The notes under the pieces are model-generated. The model saw only the letters and a list, made by a program, of their open reading frames with translations. It was not told the origin of the DNA and did no database searches. Source: Candidatus Methanophagales archaeon (GTDB lineage: Archaea; Halobacteriota; Syntropharchaeia; Alkanophagales; Methanospirareceae). Taken from it: DNA of 34,086 nucleotides. This document shows, in pieces, positions 1,227 to 34,006 of the stretch (position 1 is its first letter; each line of letters begins with the position of its first letter). The stretch covers positions 1-34,086 of the forward strand of contig JAPWVK010000159.1 in NCBI GenBank assembly GCA_029241965.1, in the 5' to 3' direction. A program made the position numbers and the translations under genes.

Positions 1227-1574
1227 CTATATTTTTTCCCATTCTTTACGAATTTTGTAGGAATCGTTTTCTCCGAATATTATCGTTCTTCTGAGCTTTT
1301 TCAAAGCTTCTACTCTTTTTTGAGTCTTCGGACGAACCCATAAAAGACGATATATAAGATATATAAGATATGAAAAAATGAAGATTGAGATGATAAGTAG
1401 AGAAAACCGTAAACCAGAAATGATGGAAGTGATGTTATTAGCTGGTAAATTAGTTGTTCCTGCTGCAAATATAAGGGCTGTAATTGAAAGTGCAACTGCT
1501 ACAAGCAGAGTGATAGTTGGGGTAGTACTATCTTGGCTATTTTGTATTCTCTGTCGAGTAGAGCTCATAGCCAT
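1227..1574 (-). CDS. small hypothetical membrane protein (two hydrophobic helices); start uncertain
   Basis: 115-aa ORF with two TM-like stretches. Its first 7 codons (both candidate ATGs) lie inside domain VI of the adjacent group II intron, so the real 5' end is unclear. Confidence 0.35.
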
Positions 1575-2206
1575 CTCCTCCCGGAAGCTACTATGAGCCC
1601 CCTCACAGAACCGGACTTGAGGTTTTCCCTCATCCAGCTCTTCGGAAGAACCTCCCTACCCTTTACCGGATAGGTTATGAGTCCAGTTTTGTTGCCACCC
1701 TTTACCAGCCTCTTTGTGCGGTGGATGTGTCCCTGACCCAACGGTTCAACCGCCAGCCCCTTCCCTCCACGGGCATTACCCCGCTTCTCCGGTACTATGA
1801 ACTGGTCCGACTCCCAGAGTGTCGTCTGCACTATCTTACCGTTTATATGTTTGATAGGACATACTCCGGTAAGGAGAACACCCCGGGTCTCCCGAGTTAA
1901 CATAATATCCATTTGATACCGTGCCACGGTCTCAGACCCCGTCGGGCTCGCATCGCATCGCCACGTCCTATTAAGACTATCGGCGATGAGAGTACTGCCT
2001 TCCGCCAACCAAACAGCGTCGGCCACCGACACAATAAGAATTTCGTGGCTGAATCCCTTCACTTGCGTTGCAGCCCAGTATCCCATTCCCCTAGCTTCAC
2101 CACAGCCTGTTACCAGGCTGGATGCAAGGTTCAGTTCTGAGGTGGCGGCTAACCTTTCCTCAGGTTGGATTTCCACCAACTGGATATTATGAACTTTGCT
2201 CGGCAC
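1553..2206 (-). mobile_element. ORF-less group II intron, copy A (~654 nt)
   Basis: Domain V is on the minus strand at 1608-1640 (GAGCTGGATGAGGGAAAACCTCAAGTCCGGTTC, with the AGC triad). Domain VI follows, with a GGGA tetraloop, a GCTCATAG/CTATGAGC stem and a bulged A in CTCT-A-CTCGAC. The 3' end is ...GAC (AY rule) at 1553. The 5' end is GTGCC at 2206. No RT ORF is present; the 218-aa ORF 1565..2221 is a translation of structured RNA. Confidence 0.75.
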
Positions 2207-6024: not shown

Positions 6025-6184
6025 CTGTATTTGTATAGCAAATTTTTAAAACCACGAGATTCCACAAGATCAACACAAGAAATAGGGATTAATGTGGGAT
6101 AATGTGGCCTATGGTATACTAAAATCTGGTTACTGCCCTTCTATTCTCGTGGAAATCGGTAAAATCTTGTGGTTAACTAAACAA
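6025..6184 (+). repeat. MITE-like intergenic repeat, copy R1
   Basis: Shares its ends with copies at 12310-12450, 13971-14125 (inverted) and 33831-34006. The ends are CTGTATTTGTATAGCAAATTTTTAAAACCACGAGATTCCACAAGAT ... TTCTCGTGGAAATCGGTAAAATCTTGTGGTTAACTAAACAA. The terminal segments are inverted relative to each other (ACCACGAGAT / ATCTTGTGGT). Confidence 0.7.
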
Positions 6185-7603: not shown

Positions 7604-7640
7604 TTATTTAAAAAGAAAGCTTTACCAAAGAAATAAAATT

Positions 7641-7685
7641 TTTTCTTTTAGTGCAGGTTTTCTTTTTATAAAAAGAAAAAGTGCA
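7641..7685 (+). promoter_or_regulatory. AT-rich palindromic module (candidate bidirectional promoter/TATA element) in the divergent intergenic region
   Basis: TTTTCTTTTAGTGCAGGTTTTCTTTTTATAAAAAGAAAAAGTGCA contains the perfect palindrome TTTCTTTTTATAAAAAGAAA. It lies between the divergent gene start at 7603 and tRNA-Leu. Near-copies occur at 14126-14176 and 33880-33932. Confidence 0.35.
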
Positions 7686-12309: not shown

Positions 12310-12450
12310 AAAAAACCACGAGATTTCACGAGAACCCCACAAGATTTTTGGATTAACCGGGGATGAAAGAGCCATTAAAGTACTTAAGCCGGAACCATTT
12401 TATCGTTTTTCTTGTGTGAATCTGCGTAATCTTGTGGTTAACTAAACAAA
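12310..12450 (+). repeat. MITE-like intergenic repeat, copy R2
   Basis: AAAAACCACGAGATTTCACGAGAACCCCACAAGAT ... CTTGTGTGAATCTGCGTAATCTTGTGGTTAACTAAACAA. Same termini as R1. Confidence 0.65.
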
Positions 12451-12490: not shown

Positions 12491-13903
12491 TTAAAGTATC
12501 GCTGTTTTCATCAGTCCCCGTATATACAACCGAGCCCATGAGTATGCTACTGTCACACCAATAATGTTTGCTACAACCAGGCCCCACCAGATGCCCACTA
12601 AGCCCAATCCAAGGTTGAACGCGAATACGGCTGCAAATAACGGAGTTAGAATGACTGTTCGTAAAACGGTGACAAGCAGTGCGGGAATCGCTCTGCCCGT
12701 TCCTTGAAAGACAGAAGAAGAGAGCATACCAAATGATATTGCAGGGTAGAATAGAGCGATTATCCGGAGAAAAATTGTCAAATCCGATGTTATATGTGCT
12801 GCACCCTCTGCTTGTGTAAATACCGCGGCGATCTGCGGTGCGAAAATGAAGGTTGCCGCTGCTATCGCTATCTCTATCATGATACCAATCTTTATTGCAT
12901 AGAGGTGCGCGATACTTATTTTCAAAAAGGCGCGTGCGCCAAAAGCAGCTCCGGTTACCGTAACAACGGCAGTAGCGATACCCATTGACGGCAGGACCGC
13001 TATACTTGCTACCCGCCAGCCGGTAGAATAGATTGCCACTCCATCGGTGCCGCCCACCATTACTATTAGGACGTTCAGGATAAGCATAGTGAACGACATA
13101 GAGAGCTGCATCACTGCAGATGGCAGACCAACTCTAAAAATATCCTTAACAATGCTTTTATCGTATTTGAAGTCGCGGAATGTGAATAATACATAGGTGT
13201 CCTTTTTGAATAGGAACCAGTTTAACATGATGATGGATGTAACGCCCAGCGATATGAGTGTAGCCCAGGCTGCACCGGCAATACCCAAACCAAGCGTGTA
13301 GATAAAAATAGGGTCTAATACGATATTCAGACCGGCACCCAATGCCATTGCATACATGGCTCGTTTGGCGTCGCCTTCACCCCGCAGTATTGCATTCGCT
13401 ACGCTAGTGAAAAATATGAAAATACTGCCGGCAAAGATAACCCTACCGTAGGCTACTGCCATAGCTAAGGTTCCACCCGCACCTATCAGAGCGAATATCT
13501 CCGCTGCAAAGGCGAAAAGCGGTATGGTGAAAGCAACTGCGACTATCACCGTTATAATGAGTGTATGAACTGCTACGTTATCTGCACCTACCTTATCCCG
13601 CGCACCGATCCTACGGGATATAGCCGACCCTGCTCCTACGCCCAATCCGTTGGACAGAGCCATAGCCATAAAGAAAAATGGGAAGACGAAACCAATGGCA
13701 GCGAGTGCGTCTGCACCGAGACCCGACACCCAAACGGCATCAACAAGATTATAGATGGTCTGCATGGACATAGCCGCAATCATAGGCAATGCAAGTTTGA
13801 TAATGCCTTTTTTCGGGTCGCCAAGTAAAGTCTCTACGCCTTTCGTTCTCTTGTTCTGTGATGACTCCGCAGAAATGTCTTTTCCTGATAATTTAGTATT
13901 CAT
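12491..13903 (-). CDS. MATE-family multidrug/toxin efflux transporter
   Basis: 470 aa with about 12 TM helices. The N-terminal signature LALPMIAAMSMQTIYNLVDAVWVSGLG and the internal duplication are typical of MATE (NorM/DinF-like) proteins. Confidence 0.88.
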   Translation of the reverse strand: MNTKLSGKDISAESSQNKRTKGVETLLGDPKKGIIKLALPMIAAMSMQTIYNLVDAVWVSGLGADALAAIGFVFPFFFMAMALSNGLGVGAGSAISRRIGARDKVGADNVAVHTLIITVIVAVAFTIPLFAFAAEIFALIGAGGTLAMAVAYGRVIFAGSIFIFFTSVANAILRGEGDAKRAMYAMALGAGLNIVLDPIFIYTLGLGIAGAAWATLISLGVTSIIMLNWFLFKKDTYVLFTFRDFKYDKSIVKDIFRVGLPSAVMQLSMSFTMLILNVLIVMVGGTDGVAIYSTGWRVASIAVLPSMGIATAVVTVTGAAFGARAFLKISIAHLYAIKIGIMIEIAIAAATFIFAPQIAAVFTQAEGAAHITSDLTIFLRIIALFYPAISFGMLSSSVFQGTGRAIPALLVTVLRTVILTPLFAAVFAFNLGLGLVGIWWGLVVANIIGVTVAYSWARLYIRGLMKTAIL

Positions 13904-13970: not shown

Positions 13971-14125
13971 TTGTTTGACTAACCACAGATTACACAGATT
14001 TCCACGAGAAAATATAACGCTGTAAGGTATAAGATGCAAATCTAACCGATATCCTGCGTCCCGTACAATCTTCTTGTGCTAATCTCGTGGAATCTCGTGG
14101 TTTTAAAAATTCGCTATACAAATAC
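13971..14125 (-). repeat. MITE-like intergenic repeat, copy R3 (inverted orientation)
   Basis: The reverse complement reads GTATTTGTATAGCGAATTTTTAAAACCACGAGATTCCACGAGATTAGCACAAGAA ... TTCTCGTGGAAATCTGTGTAATCTGTGGTTAGTCAAACA, collinear with R1. Confidence 0.65.
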
Positions 14126-14176
14126 GTTTTTCTTTTAGCACATGTTTTCTTTTTTCTAAAAAGAAAAAGTGTTGTG
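14126..14176 (+). promoter_or_regulatory. AT-rich palindromic module (copy 2), pointing into group II intron B
   Basis: TTTTTCTTTTAGCACATGTTTTCTTTTTTCTAAAAAGAAAAAGTGTTGTG is a near-copy of 7641-7685 and of the reverse complement of 33880-33932. Confidence 0.3.
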
Positions 14177-14211
14177 TTAAGTATTGTGTAATATCGTGGT
14201 CTGTCGACATG

Positions 14212-14530
14212 GAAGCTGCATCGCAGATTGCCCGTGCGGCTACCCCCGCCATTCGGGGTAATCCTACTGCGGAACACGTCGGGGGTAACGCTTGCGTGGT
14301 AAGCTCGCAGGACAACGTGGAAAATCAGAAAGTCCGATTTGGATCAACTGCCAGGATAAGAACGCTATTTGTTGACAAGAAGTTGCATCACCGATTGCCT
14401 AACCGGGTACCCCCGCCATTCGGGGTAATCCTACCGCGGAATGCGCGGATGGGAACGTCCACGTAGTAAGCCCGCGGAACAACGTGTAAAATCTGAAAGT
14501 CCGGTTTAGATCAACTGCAAGGATAAAAAC
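14212..14530 (+). repeat. tandem duplication (2 x ~167 nt) covering the 5' exon-intron junction and 5' part of group II intron B
   Basis: Unit 1 (14212-14378) is GAAGCTGCATCGCAGATTGCCCGTGCGGCTACCCCCGCCATTCGGGGTAATCCTAC.... Unit 2 (14379-14530) is GAAGTTGCATCACCGATTGCCTAACCGGGTACCCCCGCCATTCGGGGTAATCCTAC.... The GTGCG 5' splice motif is present only in unit 1. Confidence 0.75.
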
Positions 14531-15155
14531 ACCATGAAGAGCGTAAAGCGAACCATTGTAAGAGTCGTCACGTATAATAAGCGAAAACGGACTGTTACGC
14601 TTGGACCAAAAGGTACGGAATTTGGCCATAATGGCTACCATAACGTTATGGTGGGTGGACATACGATTCCCGGCTTACAGGCGGCTTCTAAGGTGTTCAT
14701 AAATATCTGTGATGTAGAACGTGGTAAGCCCTATATGCTCCCGGAATCACAGGGTAGGGACCTCGTAAGGGTAAACGATGGCTTAGAGGGTAGAGGATTT
14801 GGTAAAAAGCGAATGGCATCTTGTAATGAAAGGTATAGGGGTTCGAAATTTGCCCTAACCCGAAAGGGTGCTGACTTACCAAATTGGTGTTCCATTGTAT
14901 GCTTGGAGGCAGAATGTAAGTAGTTCAATTACGCCTGTAATAGGCGAGCGACTTACAGACATTCAACCAAAACGCCGATATCATATGGAAAGAGGTTGAA
15001 GAACTTGTTAACAGGTTGCAAACCTGAATTACAAAAGCAGTTAACTGCTGCCCGATACAGAAAGGGTTATGAAATGCTTGAGCGGTATGAAGGGAAACTT
15101 TCACGTACCGTTCTGAGACGAGGAGGGGCGAGCAATCGCCCCATCCTTAGTCTGC
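14234..15155 (+). mobile_element. ORF-less group II intron, copy B (~0.9 kb including the internal duplication)
   Basis: The 5' end is GTGCG at 14234. Domain V is a canonical 34 nt at 15080-15113 (GAGCGGTATGAAGGGAAACTTTCACGTACCGTTC), with the AGC triad, a GAAA loop and a 2-nt CG bulge. Domain VI has a GCAA tetraloop (GGGGCGA-GCAA-TCGCCCC) and a bulged A at 15149. The 3' boundary is only approximate (+/-10 nt). There is no RT/maturase ORF. Confidence 0.8.
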
Positions 15156-15171
15156 TAGCTAAACAAATAAT

Positions 15172-16419
15172 TCAAAATGACTTCGTCAATTCCTCTACTA
15201 TCGCGTTGGCTATCAACTTCTTCGCGCCTTTCACATGCTTTATATCCACCGCACCTGCGCTTAAAATGAACACATCGTTATCTTCGGTTCCTATTCCACC
15301 CTTGCCAACGTCATTTGCAACTACCATCGCAAGGTTGTAGCTCTCCATCTTTTCCCGCGCTCTTTCTATCAGTTCATCATCAGAAACGTGCGTCTCCGCT
15401 TTGAATCCCACGATAACGAGTTTCGGGAATTCTTTACGTACTTCTTCTATCAGTTTCGGAGTGGGGACAAGAGTCAGATGGAGCTCGCCTCCTGATGGGA
15501 TTTTCGTATCTACCGAATTACCGGTAAAATCGGCGATCGCCGCTGAGGATATAAGCGCATCGTATTCTTTACCGTTCTTTTTACCCTCACGTAGTTCATT
15601 AACGCAAGCATCAATCATTTCTTGCGCTGTTTCCACCCGGATTTCTTTTATCCCTGTTAAATCCAGTGCTCTGCTGTGTACGAGTGTGACTTCGGCTCCC
15701 TGCGTGTATGCCGCCCTTGCGAGTTCTACACCTGTTCGTCCAGAGCTTCGGTTTGTTAAAATCCTTATCGGATCTATCGGCTCAATGGTCGCACCTCCTG
15801 TAATGATGATGCGTCTTCCCAGAAGATTCTTTGGCGAGAGTACACGCTCAATGGTAAGAACCATATTCTCGATTGATACGATCTTAGCAAGCCCTTCCTC
15901 TATTTTCGGCCCTATGACGGTTACACCGAGCCTTTTCAGCTTATTGAGGTTCTCTATCAGAACAGGACTCTTATATATAGTCTCGTGCATCGCCGGCACC
16001 ACAATAATTGGTATTTCAGAGCCGAAGGCAGTGGTTGCAAATGCAGTCACCGTGGTGTCCGACACGCCCGTAGCGATTTTATTTAACGTGTTTGCAGTGC
16101 ATGGTGCGACGATAAACAGGTCTGCGAAACCTTCCATACCCAAGAACTCTACATGCTCTATATTACCCATTAGTTTCGTTATCACTTCGTGACCCGTGGC
16201 GTAATGAAGCGTATAAGGGTGAATTATTTCGGTTGCCGCTTCACTCATCACGCCGTACACATCTGCACCATGCCGTACTAGTTCGCGTGCGAGTTCAACA
16301 GTTCTTACTGCTGCGATAGAGCCCGTAACACCCAGAACTATCTTCTTATCTAACAGAGACTGGCTTTTTGTTCCTTTGATGCGCAGGGTCGGATGCGGCC
16401 CCCTATCTCTTTTTGTCAT
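15172..16419 (-). CDS. coaBC: bifunctional phosphopantothenoylcysteine decarboxylase / phosphopantothenate-cysteine ligase (CoaBC, Dfp)
   Basis: The N-terminal flavoprotein half has KKIVLGVTGSIAAVRTVELARELVRHGADV and a PCTANTLNKIA-type motif (APCTANTLNKIATG). The C-terminal ligase half has ITGGATIEPIDPIRILTNRSSGRTG and AAIADF. The start is placed at the Met at 16419 because the longer ORF (to 16479) overlaps tRNA-Ala. Confidence 0.9.
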   Translation of the reverse strand: MTKRDRGPHPTLRIKGTKSQSLLDKKIVLGVTGSIAAVRTVELARELVRHGADVYGVMSEAATEIIHPYTLHYATGHEVITKLMGNIEHVEFLGMEGFADLFIVAPCTANTLNKIATGVSDTTVTAFATTAFGSEIPIIVVPAMHETIYKSPVLIENLNKLKRLGVTVIGPKIEEGLAKIVSIENMVLTIERVLSPKNLLGRRIIITGGATIEPIDPIRILTNRSSGRTGVELARAAYTQGAEVTLVHSRALDLTGIKEIRVETAQEMIDACVNELREGKKNGKEYDALISSAAIADFTGNSVDTKIPSGGELHLTLVPTPKLIEEVRKEFPKLVIVGFKAETHVSDDELIERAREKMESYNLAMVVANDVGKGGIGTEDNDVFILSAGAVDIKHVKGAKKLIANAIVEELTKSF

Positions 16420-16421
16420 AA

Positions 16422-16494
16422 TGGACTGGTCGGGATTTGAACCCGAGGCCTCTCGCACGCCAAGCGAGTGATCTTCCAACTGATCTACCAGCCC
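16422..16494 (-). tRNA. tRNA-Ala (anticodon GGC)
   Basis: The 73-nt cloverleaf was folded by hand. The acceptor GGGCTGG pairs with CCAGTCC and includes the G3:U70 alanine identity pair. The anticodon stem CTCGC/GCGAG carries loop TTGGCGT. The T-arm is TCGGG-TTCAAAT-CCCGA. The discriminator is A and no CCA is encoded. Confidence 0.93.
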
Positions 16495-33830: not shown

Positions 33831-34006
33831 ATTTGTTTGTACAGCAAATCTACGAAACCACGAGATTCCACGAGATTAGCACAACACTTTTTCTTTTTCA
33901 GAAAAAGAAAACCTGTGCTAAAAGAAAACACGTTTGTTCTTTTGGTAAAGCTTTTCTTTCAAAGAAAAGGTTTCTCGTGGAAATCTATGGTTCGCTAAAC
34001 AAACAT
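33831..34006 (+). repeat. MITE-like intergenic repeat, copy R4, with the AT-rich palindromic module nested inside
   Basis: The sequence is TTTGTACAGCAAATCTACGAAACCACGAGATTCCACGAGATTAGCACAACA, then [module 33880-33932], then GGTTTCTCGTGGAAATCTATGGTTCGCTAAACAAACA. The module is the reverse complement of 14126-14176 and points toward cooC. Confidence 0.6.

Follow-up and report, generated by a model that had tools for sequence, protein, structure and literature searches.

We describe here an intergenic group II intron in a 34,086-nt stretch of DNA (the window) from a Candidatus Methanophagales archaeon, which, from comparison with its siblings, is probably a collapsed twintron of two ORF-less introns, one having homed into domain I of the other before a recombinational deletion (our estimate is about three chances in four). 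The outcome would be a composite of nt 1-168 of a resident intron (fragment A), nt 1 to ~250 of an invading sibling (B) and an A-type remainder (nt ~250-787), which can be read as a 167-nt tandem duplication of the intron front end. This revises the anatomy proposed in an earlier note on the same DNA: the start of the intron moves 32 nt upstream, the duplicated stretch includes no exon, and what looks like a repeat would be a scar of homing and recombination. The parts of the locus are as follows.

14179-14200, + strand: 5' exon and target, a partial copy of the 3' arm of a dispersed hairpin repeat (AAGTATTGTGTAATATCGTGGT)
14183-14187, + strand: possible IBS2 TGTGT, weak (5 bp including 2 wobbles, unusual spacing; direct reading)
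14195-14200, + strand: IBS1 CGTGGT; EBS1 ACCAUA pairs with CGUGGU at 5 of 6 positions, offset as in sibling copies
14201-14368, + strand: fragment A, nt 1-168 of the putative resident intron, with the 5' end CUGUCGACAUGGAAG, the 5' strand of the domain I basal helix and the first subdomains
14356-14368, + strand: putative homing site within domain I of fragment A, with IBS2-like ATAAG (14356-14360) and IBS1-like CGCTAT (14363-14368)
14369-14620, + strand: B-derived segment, nt 1 to ~250 of the putative invading sibling, with the 5' end UUGUUGACAAGAAG, the EBS2 region CACGUAU (14569-14575) and an RF02012 match (14410-14541)
~14621-15155, + strand: 3' part of the ribozyme, of a different, apparently resident-type lineage (end of domain I, domains II-III, domain IV remnant, D5, D6)
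14624-14655, + strand: EBS1 hairpin, with EBS1 ACCAUA at 14637-14642
14705-14717, + strand: domain I closing strand, from the consensus fold
14986-15050, + strand: remnant of the RT-frame N-terminus (..W.EVEE.VNRLQ.RITKAV) and closed domain IV hairpin, aligned to ORF-carrying relatives
15080-15113, + strand: domain V, 34 nt
15116-15155, + strand: domain VI, with a GCAA tetraloop, the bulged branch-point A at 15149 and the intron terminus ...GUCUGC at 15155

Identity of the ribozyme

The hallmarks of group II introns are a domain V hairpin, a bulged A in domain VI, EBS/IBS pairing, a 5' GUGYG and a six-domain layout. By its sequence, the element is a group II intron without an RT/maturase ORF, as the earlier note had recognized. 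The Rfam domain V/VI model RF00029 matched 15078-15155 on the + strand with 60 bits, against a gathering score of 40, and the D5-only model RF04357 matched exactly the 15080-15113 originally assigned to domain V; the hairpin is 34 nt long, with the conserved AGC triad and a 2-nt bulge. The D6 helix (15116-15153) has the GCAA loop and bulged A that had been attributed to it, the unpaired A lying 6 nt before the 3' end. That end had also been placed correctly: in the 43 copies compared, homology stops directly after the terminal C, and siblings with unrelated flanks align as far as ...CTTAGTCTGC. The covariance search that had been suggested located domain I upstream of domain V, with two RF02012 (group-II-D1D4-7) matches over the 5' part of D1, one of 37.8 bits at 14244-14385 and one of 45.3 bits at 14410-14541 (gathering score 34). 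An RNAalifold consensus fold of seven ORF-less copies gave a D1-D6 layout with 218 pairs, 63 of them showing compensatory changes.

There is no RT ORF within the intron, nor the RT/maturase ORF in domain IV that characterizes a mobile retroelement. The sole sizeable ORF (14534-14923, 129 aa) was considered as an intron-borne gene, the protein-coding alternative to the ribozyme, and rejected: Pfam gave no match, and stops or frameshifts interrupt the reading frame in the relatives L069, L114, L028, L018_1, L016, L017 and L006. Domain IV retains ~60 nt of RT N-terminal coding sequence before the closed hairpin (AGCAGUU/AACUGCU, 15037-15050), and L114, L028 and L108 align on either side of a ~1.3-1.4 kb insert exactly at this remnant. 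These three relatives and L017 encode RT/maturases of 449-519 aa, with RVT_N, RVT_1 and GIIM domains in the domain IV ORFs (confirmed for L114). An RT-encoding sibling copy was not found on contig JAPWVK010000159.1, to which the search extended. The same 961 nt are present at 99.6% identity in an independent ENA assembly (L002), so that the arrangement is no assembly artefact.

The element is intergenic, interrupts no gene and is antisense to both flanking genes. It does lie close to coaBC, as had been remarked, with 16 nt between 15155 and the stop codon at 15172-15174; no effect on host genes is evident.

Intron boundaries and the repeated segment

Tandem Repeats Finder reported a period of 167 over 14212-14530 (1.9 copies, 81% matches, score 433), bearing out the ~167-nt repeat of the earlier note, and a pairwise alignment of the two units gave 86% mean column identity. 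The note had placed the 5' splice site at GTGCG (14234) and proposed that the splice motif was altered in the second copy. The motif is indeed present at 14234-14238, with TAACCGGG at the matching place of copy 2. We set the 5' boundaries by aligning the locus with more than 12 sibling introns whose flanking DNA differs from copy to copy. Sibling homology begins at (Y)TGTYGACAAGAAG despite the unrelated upstream DNA, giving 5' ends at 14201 and 14369, the first ~32 nt upstream of the GTGCG, and bacterial relatives with the same D5 have a canonical GTGCGACAAGAAG at the position homologous to this start. Where the locus copy reads CGTGC, other copies read TAACC or CTTGT. On this alignment the GTGCG is a chance match, not a 5' splice site, and the second copy never had a splice motif at that place.

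The repeated "GAAGCTGCATCGCAGATTGCC", interpreted earlier as ~22 nt of upstream exon, corresponds to intron nt ~12-32, and CTGCATCGCAGAT (14216-14228), within the repeated stretch, is the 5' strand of the domain I basal helix, with compensatory changes. Since the supposed exon of the repeated unit is intron nt 1-32, no exon, exon-intron junction or target is duplicated. A partial copy thus does abut a full-length one, as had been suggested, but not at a duplicated target sequence. GAAGYTGCATC, the proposed EBS/IBS partner, was rejected as an exon IBS; it lies inside the intron, at nt ~12-22, where it shares positions with the 5' strand of the same basal helix.

Neither 5' end conforms to GUGYG, the homologous positions being CUGUC (14201-14205) and UUGUU (14369-14373); the consensus is found at the 5' terminus of the siblings L016, L108, L052 and L131B and of the bacterial relatives. 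Within the family the two termini covary, G1 occurring with ...AC and Y1 with ...GC, where G replaces the penultimate A. Given this covariation, the non-GUGYG start looks like a lineage variant, not a reason for exclusion.

Sister loci and probable homing into domain I

In fragment A, homology to siblings ends at ...GGATAAGAACGCTAT, so that the fragment has no EBS2, no EBS1 and nothing downstream of them. The same junction of GGATAAGAACGCTAT with an intron 5' end gave 20 metagenome matches, ~18 of them real, and one more in a Methanosarcinales MAG (L018). At these sites the outer fragments are of different lineages and have different upstream flanks. The inner introns of L122, L124, L125, L126, L128 and L133 have an EBS1 (AUGGUG or AUAGUG) that pairs at all six positions with CGCUAU and an EBS2 (CACUUAU) that pairs with AUAAG; their EBS1/EBS2 are therefore complementary to nt ~156-168 of the outer intron, as are those of L131. 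Family-wide, EBS1 pairs 6/6 with the copy's own upstream sequence in 16 of 21 copies, versus 11.6% of mismatched controls. The predicted B-type target sequence in sibling introns is AUAAGAACGCUAU, and the form carrying the homing site is GGAUAAGAACGCUAU/GAAG, the slash marking the insertion point after nt 168.

An intact nested form exists in L131, whose inner intron of 757 nt separates outer nt 1-166 from 167-471, otherwise contiguous. The outer-type intron L017 matches the last 82 nt of L018 at 96% identity. No remainder of an outer intron was found downstream, either after 15155 in the locus or in L018. Outer sequence on both sides of an inner intron, the mark of an intact twintron, is thus seen in L131 and not in the locus, which for want of that remainder would be a collapsed derivative. 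The upstream flank of the sister composites L124, L128 and L133 is itself a dispersed repeat, and these composites may be orthologous or independent.

The repeat units stand exactly head-to-tail with nothing between them, as would be expected had slippage or unequal crossing-over duplicated the front ~167 nt of a single intron on the spot, upstream exon included or not, before the copies diverged. In essence this is how the earlier note saw the repeat. We consider such a local tandem duplication very unlikely, and sequence comparison already contradicts it. The copies are only 79-81% identical, whereas copy 2 and the junction are 95-100% identical to other metagenome sequences; copy 1 groups with a different sub-lineage; and at many unrelated sites fragments of different lineages are followed by this same junction. 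Nor would local duplication account for inner copies with an EBS1/EBS2 matching the site, for the intact nest of L131, or for a repeated 5' 32 nt that is intron and not exon.

Two lineages and a breakpoint

Judged by sequence identity, the two repeat copies come from separate intron sub-lineages, fragment A being 79% identical to copy B and 88-89% identical to L114/L028, and copy B 89% identical to L046/L018_1. From 14341 to ~14620 the locus is 95-100% identical to the sister composites or inner introns L128, L133 and L124, after which identity falls abruptly to 70-85%, placing a breakpoint between 14604 and 14622. Beyond it, nt 340-420 are 92-95% identical to L114/L028/L069 versus 78-88% to B-type copies, and for the 3' end (nt 640-787) the closest copies are L046/L039, not L114. 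The assignment of the 3' part to the resident lineage is putative, the sequence being L114-like at nt 340-420. With nt 640-787 nearest to L046/L039, the copy would be a multi-way mosaic, and more than one gene-conversion event may apply rather than a single deletion.

The locus EBS2 differs by 1 nt from that of the inner introns, and the locus EBS1 is unmatched to the homing site in fragment A. ACCAUA forms five of six pairs with the exon upstream of fragment A, against three of six with the sequence immediately preceding the full copy. An initial idea, that B had entered A here while retaining its own EBS, was rejected on the EBS1 mismatch, which led to the breakpoint analysis; a breakpoint at ~14620 would explain this mismatch and the 1-nt difference in EBS2.

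A proposed route to the composite

The collapsed twintron could have arisen in three steps. A resident of lineage A would first have entered the 3' arm of a dispersed intergenic hairpin repeat, just downstream of CGUGGU (14195-14200), a target that its EBS1 (ACCAUA) fits; flanks like ...GTGTAAT(N)TCGTGGT also stand upstream of the siblings L046, L124, L128 and L130. A sibling of lineage B, retargeted to AUAAG-AA-CGCUAU at nt ~156-168 of its relatives' domain I, as is seen directly in the sister loci, would then have reverse-spliced into the resident after nt 168, presumably mobilized in trans by the RT/maturase of an ORF-carrying family member elsewhere. Finally, homologous recombination between the like-oriented B and A at ~nt 250 would have deleted the 3' two-thirds of B together with A nt 169 to ~250; here the breakpoint is observed and the recombination is the mechanism we infer from it.

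The junction itself might suggest a different route, in which the RT, on reaching the 5' end of B RNA, jumped to the 3' end of a truncated nt 1-168 transcript of another intron. End-to-end template switching is a known ability of group II RTs, and one or two variable nucleotides (C, T, CA) stand at the junction. In single copies at ordinary targets, however, UGUUGAC is likewise preceded by the junction nucleotide, which is therefore nt 1 of the intron rather than an untemplated addition. Template switching would also leave unexplained the EBS1/EBS2 complementarity to the site, the intact L131 nest and the breakpoint at ~14620, and we regard it as extremely improbable.

It is also conceivable, though unlikely, that fragment A and B together are a functional mobile unit with a 168-nt 5' extension, spliced from the outer site and spreading as one piece. 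By analogy, and with the same low expectation, such a unit might be likened to a "zombie" twintron with a fossilised inner intron; zombie twintrons of plant mitochondria with a domain I insert still splice (PMC7049729). The present EBS1 fits the exon upstream of fragment A (5/6), the fragment A strand 14216-14228 can, on direct reading, pair with 14705-14717 at 13 of 13 positions versus 12 of 13 for B's own strand, and composites are present at many sites. Against this, the outer fragments differ in lineage from site to site while the inner introns are near-identical and site-matched, as one would expect had B inserted again and again into dispersed copies of A; the like has been argued for T. 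elongatus (PMC2882425). In fragment A, moreover, the otherwise invariant GACAAGAAG is interrupted by one extra nucleotide, a change also found in L124, and an element antisense to both neighbouring genes is under no selection for splicing.

On the collapsed-twintron reading, the element is in all likelihood an immobile relic in decay. Pairing of the present EBS1 with the inner 5' junction is not possible, and any surviving splicing would use the outer site, between 14200 and 14201, where the fit is limited to an EBS1-IBS1 pairing of 5/6 rather than 6/6 and a weak IBS2 match.

Relation to known introns

Class IIC introns lack EBS2-IBS2 pairing, have an EBS1 of 3-4 bp and insert after terminator or attC hairpins. 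Members of the present family likewise lie at or after the 3' arm of hairpin repeats, with a T-run next in several targets. In contrast to class IIC, they have EBS2-IBS2 pairing, a 6-bp EBS1-IBS1 and a 34-nt D5, which are IIB-like features. An assignment to IIC was rejected, given EBS2 pairings in L046, L016 and the inner B copies and EBS1 pairings of 6 bp; only the hairpin-adjacent location fits. The sibling RTs are 50% identical to those of HNH-bearing gammaproteobacterial (Pseudoalteromonas/Alteromonas) introns, which share D5 and the GTGCGACAAGAAG start with the family. Ps.tu.I1 is an example of a class E reference IEP. The ANME-1 introns UA.I6-8 are similar to class E IEPs (PMC7923331). 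By sequence similarity, an affiliation of the family with bacterial class E (IIB-like) introns is a lead only.

Nested group II intron arrays of Methanosarcina acetivorans were reportedly described by Dai and Zimmerly in 2003, and the link to nested and fragmentary archaeal introns drawn in the earlier note is apt. As far as the later reviews through which we compare them describe these arrays, they are trimmed by homologous recombination, leaving fragments, and resemble the present case in their archaeal host, their intergenic position without coding exons, the coexistence of ORF-less and RT-encoding siblings, and site-specific homing into related group II introns (PMC4424553, PMC2882425). 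By this analogy, the behaviour of the locus is already known from Methanosarcina. The homing site differs, being in ribozyme domain I after nt ~168 here and, in the arrays those reviews cover, in intron ORFs of domain IV (PMC4424553, PMC2882425). The host here is an ANME-1 (Methanophagales) MAG, and the locus copy, unlike the arrays as reviewed, is collapsed and has no outer 3' remainder.

In Thermosynechococcus elongatus, where TeI3 inserts into TeI4 (Mohr et al. 2010, PMC2882425), an ORF-less lineage was likewise retargeted to a conserved site in its siblings and mobilized in trans, and inner copies are near-identical while outer copies have diverged. There, however, the host is bacterial, the site lies between two ATGs of the domain IV ORF and the nests are intact, whereas the locus is collapsed. 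The zombie twintrons and self-invading intron of plant mitochondria (Zumkeller et al. 2020, PMC7049729) also show own-family invasion, in one case within domain I, with a fossilised inner intron. Unlike the locus they are organellar and lie within genes, outer-intron splicing, hypothetical here, was shown there, and no recombinational collapse was reported for them.

Implications

The findings extend to the ANME-1/ANME-2 methanotrophs the Methanosarcina pattern in which group II introns serve as each other's perpetual homing sites, and extend homing to a target inside ribozyme domain I. The intact, collapsed and mosaic forms provide a natural series for studying array turnover. For the ribozyme, the points of interest are the covariation of the termini (G1/...AC, Y1/...GC) and the targeting of dispersed hairpin repeats even though the EBS2/EBS1 pairing is IIB-like. 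For annotation, Rfam D1-D4 double matches and contig breaks in ANME MAGs can stem from such nests.

More tentatively, and at somewhat less than even odds, the sequences may represent an ANME/Methanosarcinales lineage of mostly ORF-less introns that is a parasite of its own family, homing to nt ~156-168 of its siblings' domain I, with non-canonical termini (Y at nt 1, penultimate G) and continual turnover of nested and collapsed forms by recombination. If so, each insertion would disable the host ribozyme unless the invader were spliced out first, and the locus copy would be one of the products of collapse. Were this collapsed form still able to splice from the outer site, we would be dealing with a "zombie" twintron of archaea in which a 168-nt segment of domain I is duplicated.

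Locus and setting

A spacer of 1268 nt separates the start of a MATE transporter gene from the coaBC stop, and the intron feature takes up most of it. Both flanking genes are on the minus strand, so the plus-strand feature is antisense to them; no gene is disrupted:

12491-13903, minus strand, MATE transporter gene
15172-16419, minus strand, coaBC (Pfam)

The layout is not an assembly artefact: L002, assembled independently (ENA), shows the same arrangement, with 99.6% identity over 961 nt. The MATE locus of ANME-1 cluster archaeon GoMg2 (L046, 1700-4500) is orthologous, with 96% DNA identity between the MATE genes in an alignment broken by ~224 nt of extra sequence. The MATE identity makes a Methanophagales (ANME-1) host almost certain. 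In L046 the site is empty where the window holds the intron, and the opposite end of the MATE gene carries a sibling ORF-less intron beside an inverted copy of a hairpin repeat. The longest coaBC ORF, which starts with a TTG at 16479, runs at its 5' end into a tRNA gene (64 bits; 16422-16494, minus). Translation of coaBC probably begins instead at the ATG at 16419, although none of the public gene calls has exactly the product that begins there.

Intron boundaries

The earlier note had described an ORF-less group II intron at 14212-15155 with a tandemly duplicated 5' exon-intron junction. Its observations stood: Rfam places domain V/VI (RF00029, 60 bits) at 15078-15155, with a GCAA tetraloop and an unpaired A at 15149 in domain VI; no RT ORF is present; the domain I model RF02012 matches twice (14244-14385 and 14410-14541); and Tandem Repeats Finder returns a repeat of period 167 over 14212-14530 (1.9 copies, 81% matches). 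Its interpretation held only in part; comparison of copies points to a collapsed intron-in-intron as the true anatomy of the locus.

A scan of species-representative genomes for the domain V variant (GAGCGGTATG....GAAA....CACGTACCGTTC) yielded at least 115 matching DNA stretches, many in ANME-1, ANME-2, Methanoperedens and other Methanosarcinales MAGs, and others bacterial. Among the matches listed, ~20 show homology to the window intron well beyond domain V (blastn). On the 3' side, 43 copies align up to ...CTTAGTCTGC, ...CTTAATCGGC or ...CTTAGTCTAC and diverge at once thereafter, which confirms 15155 as the 3' end. On the 5' side, copies with wholly unrelated upstream DNA align from (Y)TGTYGACAAGAAGTTGCATC..., which corresponds to 14201/14202 in the first unit (fragment A, 14201-14368) and 14369/14370 in the second (B). 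At exactly that position the bacterial relatives with the same domain V (Psychromonas, Alteromonas, Pseudoalteromonas, Budvicia) and the archaeal copies L016, L052 and L108 have a canonical GTGCGACAAGAAG or GTGTGACAAGAAG, so that GACAAGAAG represents intron nt 5-13 in canonical copies. The GTGCG at 14234, previously taken as the 5' end, does exist, with TAACCGGG at the equivalent place in the second unit, but it lies ~32 nt inside the intron. It is found in the window copy only, siblings having TAACC or CTTGT there, and is a chance match. Likewise, the repeated "upstream exon" GAAGCTGCATCGCAGATTGCC is really intron nt ~12-32. In an RNAalifold consensus of seven ORF-less copies, which contains 218 pairs, 63 of them with compensatory changes, part of it (14216-14228) pairs with 14705-14717 as the 5' side of the helix that closes domain I.

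Exon-binding sites and termini

The terminal loop ggcuNNNNNNacg (14637-14642, ACCAUA) differs from copy to copy and is complementary to the six nt before each copy's own 5' end, with 6/6 pairs in 16 of 21 copies; paired with the flanks of other copies, loops reach 6/6 in 11.6%. This behaviour identifies the loop as EBS1. A second variable stretch (14569-14575) behaves like EBS2 in L046, L016 and the inner copies of composites. By EBS1 pairing, the 5' splice site immediately precedes GUGYGAC where a copy is canonical, and in most archaeal copies falls one nt further upstream, before YUGUUGAC; by this offset the window units begin at C14201 and T14369.

Contact between nt 1 and the penultimate nucleotide is a known feature of group II introns. 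Family-wide, these termini (window 14201/14369 and 15154) covary: a canonical G start (GUGYGAC in L016, L052, L108, the L131 inner intron and bacterial relatives) goes with an ...AC end, and a Y start (YUGUUGAC, CUGUGAC) or the CAAGUCGAC start of L018 with ...GC. This covariation, uncorrected for phylogenetic non-independence, suggests that the contact is maintained as a Y-G pair.

Probable homing into domain I

Over their first 167 nt, A and B are 79% identical, as against 88-89% between A and L114/L028 and 89% between B and either L046 or the inner copy of L018. These values, together with compensatory helix changes among the A/B differences, rule out a local duplication. The two units instead belong to different lineages. 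The same layout occurs at an unrelated site in L018, a Guaymas Methanosarcinales MAG, where a 167-nt fragment 95% identical to intron L017 is directly followed by a full sibling intron. Searching metagenomes for the junction (GGATAARAAYRCYAT, 4-10 nt, GACAAGAAG) gave 20 matches, ~18 of them genuine, with outer fragments from several lineages and many different upstream flanks. Wherever the sequence is long enough, the EBS1 of the inner intron is AUGGUG or AUAGUG (6/6 with CGCUAU) and its EBS2 is CACUUAU (pairing with AUAAG), which match the final 13 nt of the outer fragment. One contig, L131, keeps the nest entire. Its inner intron measures 757 nt, has the canonical ends GUGUGAC...UUGAC and an EBS1, CAUAGU, complementary to GCUAUG, and is flanked by outer nt 1-166 and 167-471, which join without a gap when compared with L006. 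The recurrent junctions, matching EBS1/EBS2 and the L131 nest thus argue that one sub-lineage homes site-specifically into domain I of sibling introns.

Probable collapse of the nest

Only 16 nt separate the intron end at 15155 from the coaBC stop, and no 3' remainder of an outer intron is present. The window EBS1 makes 3/6 pairs with the inner site and 5/6 with CGUGGU (14195-14200), directly upstream of fragment A and at the siblings' offset. Identity to the sister composites L128, L133 and L124 is 95-100% from 14341 to ~14620 and then drops abruptly to 70-85%, placing a breakpoint within 14604-14622, immediately 5' of the EBS1 hairpin. Nt 340-420 of the window copy are 92-95% identical to the L114/L028/L069 group, also the nearest to fragment A, and the final 82 nt of L018 match the outer-type intron L017 at 96% identity. 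The simplest account would be that B inserted after nt 168 of the resident intron A, after which B and A recombined through homologous stretches in the same orientation, with loss of all sequence between the crossovers, giving A(1-168) + B(1 to ~250) + A-type (~250-787). The window copy is a mosaic, because its 3' end is closest to another group, L046/L039, and more than one exchange may lie behind it.

ORFs and derivatives

Siblings L114, L028, L108 and L017 encode proteins of 449-519 aa. The L114 protein has RVT_N, RVT_1 and GIIM domains and no HNH domain in Pfam, and shares 50% identity with the RT of gammaproteobacterial relatives, which does bear HNH. The window copy retains ~60 nt of RT N-terminal coding sequence before a closed domain IV hairpin (15037-15050), and is for this reason an ORF-deletion derivative. 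A 129-aa ORF overlapping domains I-III (14534-14923) was rejected as a gene, its frame being broken in close relatives and Pfam giving no match; the note's alternative ground for refutation, a conserved protein-coding gene over the region in relatives, hence does not apply. Elsewhere in the family, L089 is a mini-intron of ~420 nt (~100 nt of 5' sequence fused to D5/D6), and tandem or partial arrays occur in L052 and L107, the former also with an ORF extending from domain I into the RT.

Neighbouring repeats and a second intron

The window's 34 kb hold two ORF-less introns, unrelated to each other. The second, of a different structural class (1553-2210, minus), has the AglB/STT3 stop (2293) on one side and, on the other, a small membrane-protein ORF (1227-1574) whose only ATG is within the intron's domain VI:

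1553-1642, minus strand, second intron domain V/VI (RF00029)
1927-2173, minus strand, second intron D1-D4 (RF02005 D1-D4-6, 112 bits)
6048-6177, 12313-12440, 13975-14100 and 33856-33990, dispersed intergenic hairpin repeats of ~125 nt

The hairpin repeats have the form AACCACGAGATT... // ...TCTCGTGGAAATC..GTGGTT, often with a T-run after it. In ANME-1 copies of the intron family the 5' exon (IBS2-IBS1) is supplied by the 3' arm of the repeat (...GTAATCTCGTGGT), and Methanosarcinales copies are positioned after an analogous CTCTGTGCTCTCTGT hairpin arm; such targeting is IIC-like in a family with IIB-like EBS2/EBS1. The AT-rich palindromic module at 14126-14176, earlier termed promoter-like, is a dispersed repeat (also 7640-7683 and 33885-33925) that adjoins introns in other ANME-1 contigs (L046, L005, L032, L128).

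Function and significance

The host gains or loses little from an element that lies antisense to both neighbours and leaves genes intact. Splicing from the inner 5' junction is unlikely, since EBS1 is mismatched to it. Use of the outer junction is favoured by the 5/6 IBS1-EBS1 match and by the 13/13 pairing available between the 5' strand of fragment A and the strand that closes domain I; against it stand a 1-nt insertion in fragment A's otherwise invariant GACAAGAAG and 168 extra nt within domain I. Judged from sequence, the element is most likely a decaying relic (probability roughly three in four), with a small chance of residual splicing at the outer site.

According to a review of group II evolution, Methanosarcina acetivorans twintrons are nested arrays produced by repeated site-specific homing into other group II introns (summarised in PMC4424553 and PMC2882425). 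Here, in contrast, the host clade differs, the target is within domain I rather than the intron ORF, and the window copy is collapsed. Thermosynechococcus ORF-less introns were likewise retargeted to sibling introns (PMC2882425), and plant mitochondrial 'zombie' twintrons include a domain I insertion, as here (PMC7049729). ANME-1 introns are already in the Zimmerly database (PMC7923331); in the literature covered on group II introns together with ANME, no such arrangement is described. The main interest lies in the recurrent homing site in domain I and in the family's unusual covarying termini.
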